In this document: positions 30,306-36,522 of the stretch, in pieces
How the letters are laid out: every line of letters begins with the position of its first letter
Numbering within the stretch: the stretch's first letter is position 1
Source: Escherichia coli
GTDB taxonomy: Bacteria > Pseudomonadota > Gammaproteobacteria > Enterobacterales > Enterobacteriaceae
Direction: 5' to 3' (one strand)
Length of the DNA: 64,000 nt
Assembly: GCF_016903815.1 (NCBI RefSeq)
Contig: NZ_CP069973.1
The notes under the pieces: model-generated
What the model was told of the DNA's origin: nothing
The model's database searches: none
What the model saw: only the letters and a program-made list of their open reading frames with translations
Program-made: the position numbers and the translations under genes

Positions 30306-30488
30306 ATGGTTGGCGAACATTTCAGCCGAACGCAGCAAAAGTGGGCTTGTGTGCAATTTATTGCCGAGGTATCTCTGATTGCAAACTGCAAGCCATCAGA
30401 CTTAAAGCTCGCGCTCACTCTCATTGCAGACCTAGCAAACAGCGAAAATAACGAAACCGAAGATGATAATTTTTATAAGGCTGATTAG
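30306..30488 (+). CDS. Small SOS-controlled protein, possible Tum-like antirepressor
   Basis: The 60-aa ORF has GGGAGGG as SD and lies directly downstream of the LexA box. By position it is analogous to 186 tum, but the sequence identity is not verified. Confidence 0.5.
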   Translation: MVGEHFSRTQQKWACVQFIAEVSLIANCKPSDLKLALTLIADLANSENNETEDDNFYKAD

Positions 30489-30491
30489 ATT

Positions 30492-30722
30492 ATGAGAATC
30501 AATATCACGTTGGATAAAGAGCAAAAATTAGGGCAACAGATCATTGATGCTTTTCAAAATGAAATAACACATCGAGTACAATGCGTTTTTCCTGCAACAA
30601 AAGTTAACGTTAAGAAAGGGTCAATGACTGGTGTAGAGGCTATCGGATTCGATAAAGAGGCGGACAGAGAAACATTAGGCAGCATATTACAAGAGATTTG
30701 GGAAGACGATAGCTGGCGTTAA
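30492..30722 (+). CDS. DinI-family protein
   Basis: MRINITLDKEQKLGQQIIDAFQNEITHRVQCVFP...LGSILQEIWEDDSWR parallels E. coli DinI (MRIEVTIAK...ISEILQETWESADDW). Confidence 0.8.
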   Translation: MRINITLDKEQKLGQQIIDAFQNEITHRVQCVFPATKVNVKKGSMTGVEAIGFDKEADRETLGSILQEIWEDDSWR

Positions 30723-31205: not shown

Positions 31206-32147
31206 TTAATTTATTTTTAATGAATGGTAATCTCGTGAGTTGACCGAAGATTTGAGATAACTGCAATCATTAACCGACAGTATTGCCGCTAATAGGCGAC
31301 ATACCAGTGCCTGCATTTGCAGCAATATATCGTTACCATATTGACTGTTGTTAACACTTGAGAAACCAAGCGGTTGACCAAAAAAAATAGCCTCATGAAA
31401 ATTATCATTGCGGATGCCAGAAATGTTTTTTTTACCTGACACCCATGTGGGGATTGATAACCCATAAATTTTGCACATCCACTTTAATCGCTTGTAATGA
31501 TTTGGCGGTTTTTTATCAGGAGCCTTGTCATGCTCAGCCCACGACAAAGCAAAGCACCCATCAAGTGCCATGTAAAGGTACTGGAATTTTTCAAAAGAAA
31601 GGTATTGTGGGTTTTGAGATAAGAATAGTGCATGCACCACTGCCGCAATTCTTTTGGGGGAGTGCGCATCCTTATGTTTGCCATTTATATAATTAAGAGC
31701 CAGTTCTATGACTTCTTTTTCAGAGCATCCAACGAGAATAAAGTCGGTTAACTTAGTGGGCTTGATAGTGGTTGCATCTAAAAAACCAGCGTCAGTGGTT
31801 GTCAATCTTATTCCCTTGAAAAAAGAAAGGCACCACACAATAAAGTTGAGAGTTTCTAACGAGGATGTATTTTTTAATTTTAGTGTGTGCGTTTTGGGCA
31901 TACTGAATACTCGGTGACTATAAGGCATTGTGGATATGCCACCATTAAGGTTATATACATCTTGGTTTCCAGGGTATATCCAACCTTTCACAACGTTTTT
32001 ATCATTATTAACACGCTCCACTTTCTCATTGAGACCAGGTAAAGTAAGCAAAGAAAATTGTTCAGTCTCAATGTTAACTTCTACTGGATAGTATCCAAAC
32101 TCCGACATAATCTCATTGGGTTGCTGTTCGTCAACTTCACCTTGCAT
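31206..32147 (-). CDS. Hypothetical 313-aa protein with C-terminal RNDNFH (Rx4H, HEPN-like) motif; candidate phage-exclusion factor
   Basis: It is a long AT-rich ORF (22/60 G+C in line 31861). GGAGAAAG lies 2 nt before ATG 32147. The motif is encoded at 31395-31412. It occupies the gpA-to-cos slot where P2 carries tin/old. Confidence 0.7.
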   Translation of the reverse strand: MQGEVDEQQPNEIMSEFGYYPVEVNIETEQFSLLTLPGLNEKVERVNNDKNVVKGWIYPGNQDVYNLNGGISTMPYSHRVFSMPKTHTLKLKNTSSLETLNFIVWCLSFFKGIRLTTTDAGFLDATTIKPTKLTDFILVGCSEKEVIELALNYINGKHKDAHSPKRIAAVVHALFLSQNPQYLSFEKFQYLYMALDGCFALSWAEHDKAPDKKPPNHYKRLKWMCKIYGLSIPTWVSGKKNISGIRNDNFHEAIFFGQPLGFSSVNNSQYGNDILLQMQALVCRLLAAILSVNDCSYLKSSVNSRDYHSLKIN

Positions 32148-32384
32148 ATCTTTCTCCGTTCAAAAATAGGCTCGATAATTATCGAGAGGCTATCATGTTT
32201 GGAAAGAATCAATGTCCGTAATTTTTGTAAATTTAAGGTGATTTATCAATAAATAAGCTGTGCATGCAACAGGTGCATGGTTCTGCATGCGCCGGGGTTA
32301 CCCGTTTTGTACGTGCGCCGCAAGAGCTGGCGGGGATCCAGAGTGGTCATGCAACTGCATTAAAACCGCCCCATAAAGCGGGCA

Positions 32385-32403
32385 GGCGTGGCGGGGAAAG
32401 CAT
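32385..32403. other. cos cohesive-end site (186 type)
   Basis: GGCGTGGCGGGGAAAGCAT matches my memory of the 19-nt 186 cohesive end (P2: GGCGAGGCGGGGAAAGCAC). Confidence 0.8.
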
Positions 32404-32622
32404 TGCGCGCCAGCAGTGATGCGTAATAATAAAAATTATCCTCTGAGCGCGTCGTGATGGCGCTGTCGTGGTCGCTGCTGGTTCGTTGGTGGTCGGGTGT
32501 GTTCGTGCGCGTGAGACGCATCTGATGCGTGATGGTGGTGTGCATGGAAAAGCCACCAGGAGCAGCGGCTTTACAGGAGTGGCAGGATTCAAACTGCTAA
32601 TTATGTTTCTACTATGATTAAA

Positions 32623-33627
32623 CTAATTTACATGTATGTAGAGTTCACCGTCGCCAGACCAATCGGGACACTCTAAAACAAGCCCAAACTGCTTGAATAT
32701 TTCATCAATGATTATTGTTATCTCCCGAAAATCACCAAAACCTGTAATGTGCTGGTCATTAAACTTCCCATAAAGATTCTGAAAAGCAATGCCTAATTCT
32801 GATAATTGATATCTTATCTTTGAGTTGGATAGTGTAAGGGATAGCTTTGGATCGTATTCTTTAATATTGATGTTTAGAGAATGGACATAACCCATCGCAT
32901 AAGCATAAGAGTTGATGATTAGCCTGATACGTTTTTTTACTTCGAGATACATGTCATTCAGAGAAATATTACCGTACTTATAACCCCAGATGAGTTTTTC
33001 AATCTCGTCAGATACTTCATTTACAACAGTGTCAAGATTCTCTAAAAATAAATCGATAGTTTCTTGAGGGGCAGACCCCGAAGACATGTAATTAGCGAGA
33101 TATTCAGACCATGCACGCGTGGCTGAGATAAGAAGCGCGCTACCATACTCGTTGACTGTAAAGTTTTGGGCTAAGCATGTTAGTAAGTTTTTTTCATGTA
33201 CGTGCACTAATTCATGGTGAATGCGATGGATGACTGCGAGGTATCCTTCTTCTTTCAGTTTTAAGAAGCTACCATCATTGAAAAGCTCAACAAAAAAATC
33301 AATCGATAGCACAAGGGTATATTCTTCACATAGCCCATCATTGCCAATTTTTGTTACTAACTGCCCGACGGCTGCGCCCTGTTTGCTATTGGTAAATGAA
33401 CTAGGGGATTTGTGTTGGTAAGAGGATGTTACCTTTTGAAGAGCTTCACTGAAGTTATAGGAAACAATCACGCATTTTAATTTGGAGATATCAAGATTGA
33501 GATTTTTTGTTAAAGCTCGGATAGCTTCTAGTGTGAAATTACCGATATTATTTGCTTCTTGCTCAGTAGCGAAACCTTCGAGGGTTATTTTAAAATCAGT
33601 TTCCAAAATATTAATCTCCGCGCCCAT
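32623..33627 (-). CDS. Hypothetical 334-aa protein with HELVH (HExxH) motif; candidate zinc metallopeptidase-like exclusion factor
   Basis: It is a long AT-rich ORF (20/60 G+C in line 32821). HExxH is encoded at 33202-33216 (verified by hand). It lies between cos and the portal gene. Confidence 0.7.
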   Translation of the reverse strand: MGAEINILETDFKITLEGFATEQEANNIGNFTLEAIRALTKNLNLDISKLKCVIVSYNFSEALQKVTSSYQHKSPSSFTNSKQGAAVGQLVTKIGNDGLCEEYTLVLSIDFFVELFNDGSFLKLKEEGYLAVIHRIHHELVHVHEKNLLTCLAQNFTVNEYGSALLISATRAWSEYLANYMSSGSAPQETIDLFLENLDTVVNEVSDEIEKLIWGYKYGNISLNDMYLEVKKRIRLIINSYAYAMGYVHSLNINIKEYDPKLSLTLSNSKIRYQLSELGIAFQNLYGKFNDQHITGFGDFREITIIIDEIFKQFGLVLECPDWSGDGELYIHVN

Positions 33628-33645
33628 TGTTTTGATATTCGATGC

Positions 33646-33674
33646 ACTATAGCTTTCGCAGATTGCATCTTCAA
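33646..33674 (-). promoter_or_regulatory. Predicted sigma70 promoter for the 334-aa gene
   Basis: The minus strand has TTGAAG (33669-33674), a 17-nt spacer, and TATAGT (33646-33651), about 19 nt upstream of ATG 33627. Confidence 0.4.
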
Positions 33675-33704
33675 TAATGAGCGCAGAGATTGTGGCGGCC
33701 TAAG

Positions 33705-34751
33705 TTATTCTGGGTTGTCGAGGGTGTACTCTTTGAATCTGATGACCTCCATGCCGAGCCAGTCATTTACCTCCCTGAACCGGTCCTGTAGCGGCGACAG
33801 CTCGTTGCGCACAAATACCTTTGCCACCTTCTCAACATCACCGAGTGAACCGATATTCTCGGGCTTGCCGCCCATGAGCTGGAACGGTACGCGGTGCGCG
33901 TCCATCAGATCGGCGGCACTGGCCTTCTTGATGTTGAAAAAGTCATCCTTTGTGGCGACCTCGCTCAGTGGCACGATTTTGATGCCGTCCGGTTTTCCGC
34001 CGGGAGCGTAGAAAAACAGGTTCTTAAAGTTGCCGAGCCCTTTTGAGTTGCGCATCGCCTCGCGCAGCGATTCGACGTCGGTCGCGCTCTGCGCCGGGTC
34101 AGTCACATACATGATGTAACCCGCGTGCGCGCCGTTCTGATAATACTTGCGGCGGAACAGCGTCGCGGATTCATTCAGCCAGGCGGAATTTAGCGCGCTG
34201 AGATATTCGGGCAGGCCGTAAATCTCCTGATTAATGTCGGGCTCCAGCAGGTGAAACACGGTATCAGGCGCGAACTCGTGCGGCTGGGTGAAGTTTTCCA
34301 CAAACCAGAAAATCGAATCGTCGACTCCGCGTCGGGTGTATTTGGCTGGCGAGGCCAGCAGTTTGATTAACTGGCCGGTGACGCTGTGGCGCTGCTCAAG
34401 AAAGGCGTTACCGAACACCAGATAATCGAGCGCAAAGCGGCTGAAATCCTGACGGGATAACAACGGGTGCGGAATGTAGGTGCTCGCGAGCACGTTACGC
34501 TTAACATAAATTGGCGAGCTGTGATGCACGGCAGAGCGCAGGCTCTTTGCCAGCCCTGAGAAGCTGACCGGCGGCTCGTACCATTTGCCGTTACTGATGC
34601 ACTCGACGTAATCCAGAATGTCGCGCTTATCGAGCACCGGCACCGGCTCGCCGAAGGTGAACGCTGTCGTTTTTGGCGGTGCGCTGGCGGTCAGTTGTTG
34701 TGGTTTGCTGGCCTTTTGTGCGTTGGCTTTACGGGATTTTTGTTTACCCAT
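33705..34751 (-). CDS. Q: Portal protein (P2 gpQ homolog)
   Basis: The 348-aa product is recognised as the gpQ family and is adjacent to the terminase. Confidence 0.92.
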   Translation of the reverse strand: MGKQKSRKANAQKASKPQQLTASAPPKTTAFTFGEPVPVLDKRDILDYVECISNGKWYEPPVSFSGLAKSLRSAVHHSSPIYVKRNVLASTYIPHPLLSRQDFSRFALDYLVFGNAFLEQRHSVTGQLIKLLASPAKYTRRGVDDSIFWFVENFTQPHEFAPDTVFHLLEPDINQEIYGLPEYLSALNSAWLNESATLFRRKYYQNGAHAGYIMYVTDPAQSATDVESLREAMRNSKGLGNFKNLFFYAPGGKPDGIKIVPLSEVATKDDFFNIKKASAADLMDAHRVPFQLMGGKPENIGSLGDVEKVAKVFVRNELSPLQDRFREVNDWLGMEVIRFKEYTLDNPE

Positions 34752-34752
34752 T

Positions 34753-36522
34753 TTAGTTGAACTCCAGAATAGATTTAGGCTGCATGCCGCTACCGGCAGA
34801 AAGCGGTTCGTTTAACAGGGCGTGCATGGTCGCCCATGCGATATCGGCGTGGCTGGCTTCCTCGGTGCGGCTGGCCTCATAGGTGGCGCTGCGCCCGCTG
34901 CTGGTCATGGTTTTGCGGATGGACATAAACGACTGCGTGACGTCGGTTGCTCCGGCGTCGTACTCCAGACAGCCACGGCGAATGGTGTCTTTCGCCTTGA
35001 GTACCATTGCGGTTTTCATTTCAGGTGTGTAACGGATGCCGCGTGCCGCCGGGTAAAATGAGCGCACCAGCTGGAACACGCCGAGACCGAGGCCGGTTGC
35101 GTCAATGCCGATGTATTCGACGTTGTATTTCTCGGTCAGCTTGCGGATGCCCTCTGCCTGTGCTGCAAAATCCATGCCCTTCCACTGGTGGCGCTCCAGC
35201 ATGCGGAACTTGCCACCAGAGACCACCGGCGGCGCGAGCACGACGCACCCGGCACTGTCGCCGGTGTGTGACGGGTCGTAGCCAATCCAGACAGGACGAG
35301 AGCCGAACGGATGGTCGGCGAACGGGGCAAAGTCCTCCCATTCCTCCATTACATCGACCATGCAGCGCTGCAGCTCCTCGAACGGGAATACCGACGCTTT
35401 ATCGTCGACAAACTCGCACATAAACAGGTTCTTAAAGTCCTCATCACTGTTTTCGCGTTTGAGCTGGTCGAGGTCGAACAGGGTGCAGCCACCCGCAAGG
35501 GCGTCCTCAATGGTGACAATCTGCCGCCACTGGCCATCGTCGCAGAGCTGGCCACCGGCGAGCGCGCTGTGACTGATGTCGATTTCGATGCGGTCGGCAA
35601 TCCGGCTGCGCCCCTTGTTGAACAGCTCGCCAGACCAGAAGGGGTAAGCGCCGTGCGCCAGCGTGGAAGGTGTCGAAAAATAGGTCGAGCGCAGGTGCTT
35701 TTGCGAGGCCATGCCCGAGGCGACTTTGCGCAGTTTCTGAAAATTCGGGATCCAGAATATTTCATCGACATACAGATCGCCGTTATGGCTCTGCGCGGTG
35801 TTGGAATTGGTACCGAGAAAAATCAGTTTTGCGCCGTTGTTACCGATGACAATCGGGTCGCCAGTCAGGTCAACGTCGACCAGTCGCGCAAACTGGATGA
35901 TGTATTCGCGGAACACGTAAGCCTGCGTTTTACTGGCTGATAAAAATATCTGGTTATGGCCGGTTTTGAGTGCGCGCAGCAGTGCCTCGCGGGAGAAATA
36001 GAATGTCGCGCCAATCTGGCGGGATTTGAGAATGTCACGAATACGGTGCTCCAGTCCTGCGCGGTACCACTGCAACTGGTACTCGAAAGACTGGTCGAAA
36101 AATAATTCCTCTAGTTTATCGATAGCCTCGTCGCTGAAAAAATTCTTTTTCGGCTTTTTGCGCTCCCCTTTGTTGCGGTTGGCGACGTTGGGGTTAAGGT
36201 CGGCTTCGTTGCCGGTCTGGCTGTAGCGGTTGACTCGCGCCAACCGTTCAATCTGCCGTCCGAGCAGGTCAATCTCTTTGAAATCACCCCCTGTCTTTTG
36301 CGGCTTGGCGATGAGCTGAATCAGCCTAGCCTCAAGGCTGCTTTCAACGCGGGAAATCGGCGCGATGCCGTCCCAGCCGTCACGCTGCTTCCAGCTCTGC
36401 ACGGTCGGGCGCTTGACCTGCAGCATTTCGGCAATCTGTGGCACGGAAAAACCCTGCCAGTAAAGCAGCGATGCCTGCCGTCGCGGGTCATGCAACAAGG
36501 TTGTATCGGTGGAAATGGTCAT
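34753..36522 (-). CDS. P: Terminase large subunit (P2 gpP homolog)
   Basis: The 589-aa product is in the gpP position, divergent from O-N-M. Confidence 0.92.
   Translation of the reverse strand: MTISTDTTLLHDPRRQASLLYWQGFSVPQIAEMLQVKRPTVQSWKQRDGWDGIAPISRVESSLEARLIQLIAKPQKTGGDFKEIDLLGRQIERLARVNRYSQTGNEADLNPNVANRNKGERKKPKKNFFSDEAIDKLEELFFDQSFEYQLQWYRAGLEHRIRDILKSRQIGATFYFSREALLRALKTGHNQIFLSASKTQAYVFREYIIQFARLVDVDLTGDPIVIGNNGAKLIFLGTNSNTAQSHNGDLYVDEIFWIPNFQKLRKVASGMASQKHLRSTYFSTPSTLAHGAYPFWSGELFNKGRSRIADRIEIDISHSALAGGQLCDDGQWRQIVTIEDALAGGCTLFDLDQLKRENSDEDFKNLFMCEFVDDKASVFPFEELQRCMVDVMEEWEDFAPFADHPFGSRPVWIGYDPSHTGDSAGCVVLAPPVVSGGKFRMLERHQWKGMDFAAQAEGIRKLTEKYNVEYIGIDATGLGLGVFQLVRSFYPAARGIRYTPEMKTAMVLKAKDTIRRGCLEYDAGATDVTQSFMSIRKTMTSSGRSATYEASRTEEASHADIAWATMHALLNEPLSAGSGMQPKSILEFN

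Follow-up and report, generated by a model that had tools for sequence, protein, structure and literature searches.

What is a gene for an HExxH protein doing between the cohesive end (cos) and the portal gene Q of a P2/186-like prophage? The question is raised by a 334-codon open reading frame (ORF) in a stretch of Escherichia coli DNA of 64,000 nt (NCBI RefSeq assembly GCF_016903815.1, contig NZ_CP069973.1; this whole stretch is called the window), for which an earlier note, made from the letters alone, had suggested cargo in a non-canonical position, coding for a possible Lit-style metalloprotease. The ORF was reproduced as described there: minus strand, 334 codons, AT-rich (G+C 20/60 in the line 32821–32880), with a HELVH motif. 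It is a single-gene cargo cassette, probably a moron, in the space that separates the stop codon of the portal gene from the late-operon terminator, and is referred to below as the protease gene after its predicted product, a gluzincin-type protein for which an anti-phage role is plausible.

The HELVH motif is the only HExxH in the protein (direct translation). A word-indexed search gave 78 homologues, all gammaproteobacterial, down to 42% identity; a full profile search gave 355 clusters at E ≤ 0.001 (125 at E ≤ 1e-10), nearly all of 300–340 aa. Conservation was read from an alignment of 82 sequences taken from the 355 clusters (17–50% identity to the query). H138, E139, H142 and E175 are the sole invariant residues of this alignment; W173 (93%), A178 (98%), G246 and G315 are nearly invariant, and in the 33 close homologues HHELxHxxE and WSEYxAN are invariant throughout. 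E175 stands 33 residues after H142 (His-to-Glu spacing: 32 residues between). Judged by this pattern, H138/E139/H142 together with E175 on the next helix is the ligand set of a gluzincin; the zinc would be coordinated by H138, H142 and E175, with E139 as the general base. The gene is under purifying selection, pairwise dN/dS of the more diverged P2-borne copies being 0.19–0.25.

An AlphaFold (AF2) model was obtained with a mean predicted local distance difference test (pLDDT) of 90.7 and a predicted template modelling score (pTM) of 0.90. The HExxH motif lies on the helix 126–148 and E175 on the helix 160–185; a four-stranded alpha/beta subdomain precedes the active-site helices and a helical bundle follows them. 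The features of a gluzincin, namely HExxH on an alpha-helix, Glu on the following helix and a thermolysin-like catalytic fold, are all present in the model, and the predicted fold is zincin-like. Structure comparison scores: M30 lugdulysin 8.2; putative hydrolase 3cmn 8.1; M9 collagenases 7.8; LTA4 hydrolase 7.7; thermolysin 6.5; lethal factor and botulinum light chain 6.2–6.4. The Foldseek comparison that the earlier note had proposed returned nothing at E ≤ 0.001 in PDB or BFVD; the weak matches are again zincins (YbeY, Wss1, M61, a viral 'peptidase', IrrE-, WLM- and SprT-like proteins). With HExxH and the downstream Glu invariant in the 82 sequences and a predicted zincin-like fold, the HExxH metalloprotease reading of the earlier note stands, and the assignment as zinc metallopeptidase is made with high confidence. 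A metal-dependent hydrolase of zincin-like fold that is not a peptidase, acting for instance on RNA (as YbeY does) or on a small molecule, is considered improbable.

No hydrophobic segment was found in the protein (maximum Kyte–Doolittle 19-residue mean 1.19); a membrane or secreted protein was therefore ruled out, and the product is placed in the cytoplasm. The true start may be TTG at codon 8 (33606), giving 327 aa rather than 334 aa, and this start is the more likely one: GGAG is located 8 nt upstream of the codon-8 TTG, while the ATG at 33627 is without a Shine–Dalgarno sequence; homologues outside the P2 group start at the codon-8 TTG position; the RefSeq gene call is 327 aa; residues 1–7 have pLDDT below 50 in the model.

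The statement of the earlier note that there is no recognisable homology to a named family was borne out: neither the protein nor 81 relatives matched a model of Pfam, NCBIfam or PADLOC, PHROGs gave families of unknown function only, and PDB sequence searches (the single sequence and two profiles) gave only chance coiled-coil matches. 'Lit-style' in the sense of family membership was not supported. Both proteins are prophage-borne, encoded by a single gene, cytoplasmic, about 300 aa long and equipped with HExxH, and the motif context is HHELxHV in the protease family vs HHEISHV in Lit. Lit, the cell-death peptidase of the cryptic prophage e14, cleaves EF-Tu upon appearance of the T4 Gol peptide; by analogy, a protease of the lysogen would block a superinfecting phage. 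Membership in the Lit family was ruled out, however: no match to Peptidase_U49 was obtained in the Pfam scan at E ≤ 1; the alignment of Lit with the 82-sequence profile covers 20 columns around the motif (hhalign probability 15.8%); BLASTP gave E = 15. The invariant Glu 33 residues after the motif is a further feature of the protease family that differs from Lit. Because Lit aligns over 20 columns only and no named family matches, the protein represents a family not described before, within a known fold class.

Compared with the gluzincins of clan MA(E) (M1, M30 hyicolysin/lugdulysin, M9 collagenase, M4 thermolysin), identity is 8–13%, without a Pfam match. The HExxH-to-Glu spacing in M1 aminopeptidases is 18. 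Neither a Peptidase_M1 profile match, nor the GxMEN exopeptidase motif, nor the x18 spacing is present in the protease (spacing x32), and the protein is not an M1 member because GxMEN is absent and the His-to-Glu spacing is 32. From what the sequence offers, an endopeptidase appears likelier than an exopeptidase. In contrast to M1 and M9 enzymes the protein is small, stand-alone and cytoplasmic; it has its own C-terminal helical bundle and none of their flanking domains. ImmA/IrrE (M78) and CapP resemble it as small HExxH zincins found on prophages or beside immune operons; unlike ImmA/IrrE, it has no Peptidase_M78 match and no adjoining helix-turn-helix repressor or substrate gene (its neighbours are the portal gene and cos), and the prophage already has a Tum/DinI induction module.

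An N-terminal DUF2971 domain is fused to the zincin domain in two distant metagenomic relatives, P0171 (597 aa) and P0233 (591 aa); P0171 reads HRELGH, with another residue in place of the first zinc histidine, and this variant may be inactive. A DUF2971 gene is also located near the homologue of a Pseudomonas megaplasmid (L112).

The anatomy of the locus was established by alignment to phages 186 and P2 (Table 1). In P2, as the earlier note had stated, Q lies near cos with no gene between, and the same holds for 186: the portal stop and the cohesive end are 187–196 nt apart, with the late terminator as sole content. In the window, similarity to 186/P2 spans cos through the late terminator (tW/tQ), ends at about 32580 and returns at the portal stop. 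GC is 0.35–0.41 inside the insert vs 0.55–0.58 in the flanks; the gene itself has 37.6%, whereas the portal gene has 55.9% and the terminase gene 56.9%.

Table 1. Features of the locus between terminase gene P and the A side of cos (window coordinates).
Feature	Position	Strand	Remarks
Terminase gene P	34753–36522	minus	same strand as the ORF under study
Portal gene Q	33705–34751	minus	same strand as the ORF under study
Orphan left arm of the late terminator	33692–33704	minus	CUUAGGCCGCCAC, 13 nt; directly after the portal stop; without partner arm
Foreign insert (candidate promoter and one gene), about 1.1 kb	32580–33691	minus	missing in P2 and 186; edges ± about 10 nt
Sigma-70-like promoter candidate	33646–33674	minus	TTGAAG-17-TATAGT; within the 77 nt that follow the stop of Q
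ORF under study (protease gene)	32623–33627	minus	334 aa, ATG start at 33627
Codons of H138-E139-L-V-H142	33202–33216	minus	reverse complement CAT GAA TTA GTG CAC = HELVH
Codon of E175	33103–33105	minus	WSEYxA motif; predicted third zinc ligand
Intrinsic terminator	32546–32572	minus	homologous to 186 tW / P2 tQ; 9-bp stem AAAGCCGCU/GGUGGCUUU, then UUCC
cos cohesive-end sequence	32385–32403		GGCGTGGCGGGGAAAGCAT; alignment to annotated cos of 186 and P2
313-aa ORF	31206–32147	minus	AT-rich, 38.6% GC; classical tin/old slot, A side of cos

Transcription leaving either the portal gene or the protease gene would reach the intrinsic terminator (terminator scan, RNA fold, alignment to the 186/P2 terminators) as the first one, and its stem is retained in the Salmonella and PKF8 copies. 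Comparison of loci indicated that at canonical loci the sequence AAGCCGCC...GGCGGCTT comes after the portal stop; here only the left arm is left at this place, and no terminator hairpin between Q and the protease gene was found (fold of 33628–33707, z = 0.19). As the orphan arm has no partner, Q and the protease gene are not separated by a terminator; the protease gene sits inside the late P–Q transcription unit, with a promoter-like site of its own. The promoter candidate named in the earlier note was found at its place, with a match of 9/12. The copies of PKF8, Citrobacter, Escherichia sp. E1V33 and Salmonella have the same two hexamers, and from the −35 hexamer to the start 6–8% of the positions differ between the PKF8 and Salmonella copies, at a synonymous divergence of the coding part of 0.21–0.29; conservation of the hexamers lends the candidate some support. 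In terms of a moron, the composition of the insert differs clearly from its surroundings and a promoter is predicted and conserved, and the terminator is the late one of the phage, not cassette-borne.

This layout bears on a lytic-cycle or counter-defence protease, made mainly by read-through from late P–Q transcription and serving the growth of the phage itself, with a host immunity or stress protein, or a protein of a satellite or competitor, as example targets. The gene is on the same strand as P–Q, no terminator stands between it and Q, the sole complete terminator hairpin lies downstream of the gene, and the arrangement is distinctive, most other cargo of the slot being found beyond the terminator on the opposite strand. 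Nevertheless, the distant homologues (about 25–60% identity) are found in chromosomes and megaplasmids outside late operons, often beside defence genes, the gene is present in only 1 of 50,697 deposited phage genomes, and the conservation of the promoter-like site favours expression that does not depend on the late operon; such a role is regarded as unlikely.

The variability of the cos-to-Q interval, a point raised in the earlier note, was surveyed in the 80 viral contigs that best match the portal (nearest relatives, not a random sample). The distance from the portal stop to cos is 156–180 nt in 64 contigs and 381–4838 nt in 15; cos was not found in one. The 15 expanded loci contain: a small DUF2188 ORF only (7); the protease gene, split (1); two- or three-gene cassettes (7), among them GmrSD_N + HEPN (PADLOC NsnA/PD-T4-2_A, 1.5e-68), a DndB-like pair and a PLD-like candidate. 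The 'non-canonical position' of the earlier note holds in that the slot is empty in P2 and 186; it does not hold for the related phages, 15 of 79 of which carry cargo there, inside the gpA–gpQ hotspot. The slot is real and recurrent rather than new. Its cargo lies mostly beyond the terminator on the opposite strand, whereas the protease gene stands in front of the late terminator on the late strand, and this is what is unusual.

The DUF2188 ORF (74–103 aa, opposite strand, between the late terminator and cos; loci L010, L016, L017, L037, L038, L050 and L070) is the commonest extra gene of the slot (7/79). In the P2-like IMG/VR contigs L073 (7045–11882) and L074 (7045–9495) the hairpin loop of the late terminator apparently receives the cargo, a PLD-like three-gene set in L073 and a GmrSD_N + HEPN pair in L074. 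The insert is bordered by short direct repeats (CAATTTAGG in L073), with ends reading TGTATTAG... and ...CTGATACA; this looks like a transposon-type insertion with target duplication.

Rousset et al. 2022 (PMC9122126) took the whole cos-adjacent stretch from gpA to gpQ as the P2 hotspot, and gpA–gpQ was confirmed as the main P2 defence hotspot by a 2026 survey (PMC13586616). The protease gene is located in this interval, beside cos, at a site of variable occupancy among related phages. One supplementary row of the former work lists WP_001622301 + WP_001622299 + WP_001622297 + DinI (WP_001622296) + WP_000232651 + one hypothetical, every entry but DinI being labelled 'hypothetical' (PMC9122126). 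The second to fifth accessions are the RefSeq neighbours of the protease gene in the same order; because of this match of accessions and order, WP_001622301 is almost certainly the protease under an older accession. Like other hotspot cargo, the insert is of foreign composition, varies between related prophages and is swapped as a module. It differs from the classical tin/old cargo of P2 by lying within the late transcription unit, on that side of cos where the portal gene is, and from the hotspot systems validated or modelled so far in that PADLOC finds no match for it.

The protease gene was found in 25 of 5,426 complete E. coli genomes (all copies chromosomal), in the one deposited phage genome given above and in 1 of the 80 related phage contigs; it is common, in the same slot, in the P2-like prophages of Salmonella (very many prophages), and intact full-length copies extend from E. 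coli to Shewanella and Psychromonas. These frequencies rule out a conserved packaging accessory, and the proposal of the earlier note, an AT-rich cargo gene with a plausible promoter of its own, is upheld, the cargo being foreign. The same gene in the same slot is combined with differing A-side cargo in E. coli PKF8, Citrobacter amalonaticus, Escherichia sp. E1V33 and Salmonella. A two-gene system with the 313-aa ORF across cos was considered and ruled out, each gene occurring alone: the protease gene is without the 313-aa ORF in PKF8, Citrobacter, Escherichia sp. E1V33 and Salmonella, and the 313-aa ORF is without the protease gene in P2-EC67 and Yersinia 186-like phages. As each is found without the other, the two are separate modules. 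No conserved partner gene was found in the contexts of homologues outside enterobacterial prophages; ORFs of 128–160 aa beside a few distant homologues were rejected as a small upstream partner, being absent here and inconsistent elsewhere.

What would such a protein do? The preferred answer is a soluble, cytoplasmic gluzincin-type protein (about 330 aa) that the lysogen would express from the promoter of the gene itself; late P–Q read-through would also yield it, since no terminator separates Q from the gene. It would act as a superinfection-exclusion or abortive-infection effector that responds to the detection of an incoming phage by cleaving a phage protein or a protein essential to the host, on a principle like that of Lit, presumably reached in a separate line of evolution. 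Taken as a whole, this reading (a protease that stands alone, is expressed in the lysogen and acts against phages) is judged about evenly balanced between right and wrong. In favour of the anti-phage role are the hotspot, the slot shared with defence cassettes, the patchy distribution and the defence neighbours of homologues. The latter were as follows: a type I restriction–modification system (HsdR), DUF4357 and VspR in Psychromonas; Wadjet JetABCD + TerB on a metagenome contig; an AAA + S8-protease pair in Vibrio; a Pycsar-type TIR effector in Colwellia; a UvrD-like defence helicase in an Alteromonadaceae metagenome-assembled genome; a Pycsar operon on a Paenibacillus plasmid. The remaining contexts are uninformative, or toxin or mobile-element regions.

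The toxin–antitoxin or polymorphic-toxin genes that some contexts have in place of classical defence genes (YafO + Tlde1; pP_pnuc with Hcp) would also suit a lysogenic-conversion or housekeeping-type protease apart from phage conflict, engaged for example, to the benefit of the host, in the turnover of stress proteins, antitoxins or regulators. Prophage cargo with a promoter candidate of its own is what such a gene would be, and prophage proteases acting on antitoxins are reported (PMC10846083). The patchy distribution and the slot shared with recognised defence cassettes speak against it, as does the finding that no conserved partner, regulator or antitoxin gene was present in the homologue contexts; this role is held to be rather unlikely.

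Several points weigh against the anti-phage protease. The defence neighbours are anecdotal, about 5 clear and several weak cases among about 15 contexts, and without a background rate they are suggestive only. Promoter-like matches are not enriched in the AT-rich stretch (11 vs 6.7 ± 2.9 in shuffles). The position in the late transcription unit fits a lytic-cycle role equally well. The failure of every Pfam, NCBIfam and PADLOC model to match, mentioned above, counts here too, and searches of the literature by accession, phage name and keyword found no description of the protein. Finally, broken alleles circulate, with ORFs of 113 aa + 154 aa (L013, 7125–8129; WP_000500607.1) and with a 1-nt deletion in the allele of E. 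coli TW10598 (H54). These split and frameshifted alleles, and the rarity of the gene in E. coli, are what decaying hitch-hiker DNA without current function would give. Decay is nevertheless very improbable in view of the dN/dS ratios, the full-length copies from E. coli to Shewanella and Psychromonas, and catalytic residues that are invariant down to 17% identity.

The 113-aa and 154-aa ORFs are listed as separate PHROGs families (phrog_28537 and phrog_30021).

The surroundings of the gene in the window are those of a P2/186-like prophage, and the segment 30400–33720 is identical to Escherichia phage vB_EcoM-613R3. Replication gene A runs to 30192 and is followed by Tum-like ('UV induction of prophage') and DinI-like genes (30306–30722), which mark the prophage as 186 type (SOS-inducible), not P2 type. 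Nucleotides 1–175 of phage 186 match 32385–32558, which sets the start of cos at 32385; cos is the end of the virion genome, and it has the Q-side cargo slot to one side and the classical A-side slot to the other. A 51-aa ORF (32264–32419, plus strand; RefSeq hypothetical WP_164966458; a similar ORF is in the phage record) runs across cos and is probably spurious, as terminase cleaves within it. For the 313-aa ORF on the A side no match was obtained in Pfam, NCBIfam, PADLOC or PDB, and PHROGs gave phrog_5937 (unknown function); as it is found without the protease gene, it is a second, independent candidate cargo gene.

The locus is no anomaly: it holds a conserved, unannotated zincin family in a known defence hotspot, one good candidate among many uncharacterised hotspot genes. 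For the map of the P2 hotspot it means that the portal side of cos also takes cargo, beyond the late terminator or, as here, ahead of it. Should the protein have no part in defence, the gene is an ordinary uncharacterised accessory gene. If the protein does act against phages, a single-gene defence family based on a protease and unseen by PADLOC, Pfam and NCBIfam is gained, with a four-residue active site that can be cleanly mutated and with natural hosts in E. coli and Salmonella. A wider and more tentative proposal, possible rather than probable, is that the whole family (about 355 clusters at 50% identity; Proteobacteria, Bacillota and other phyla) is a new, widespread single-gene abortive-infection or exclusion system, in which the stand-alone cytoplasmic gluzincin would both sense the phage and cleave an essential host or phage protein as an independent counterpart of Lit. 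Protease-mediated bacterial immunity has few examples, including Lit, the Lon- and caspase-like CRISPR and CBASS effectors, and IetS; an independent zincin case would help to define the cellular targets that serve as kill switches.

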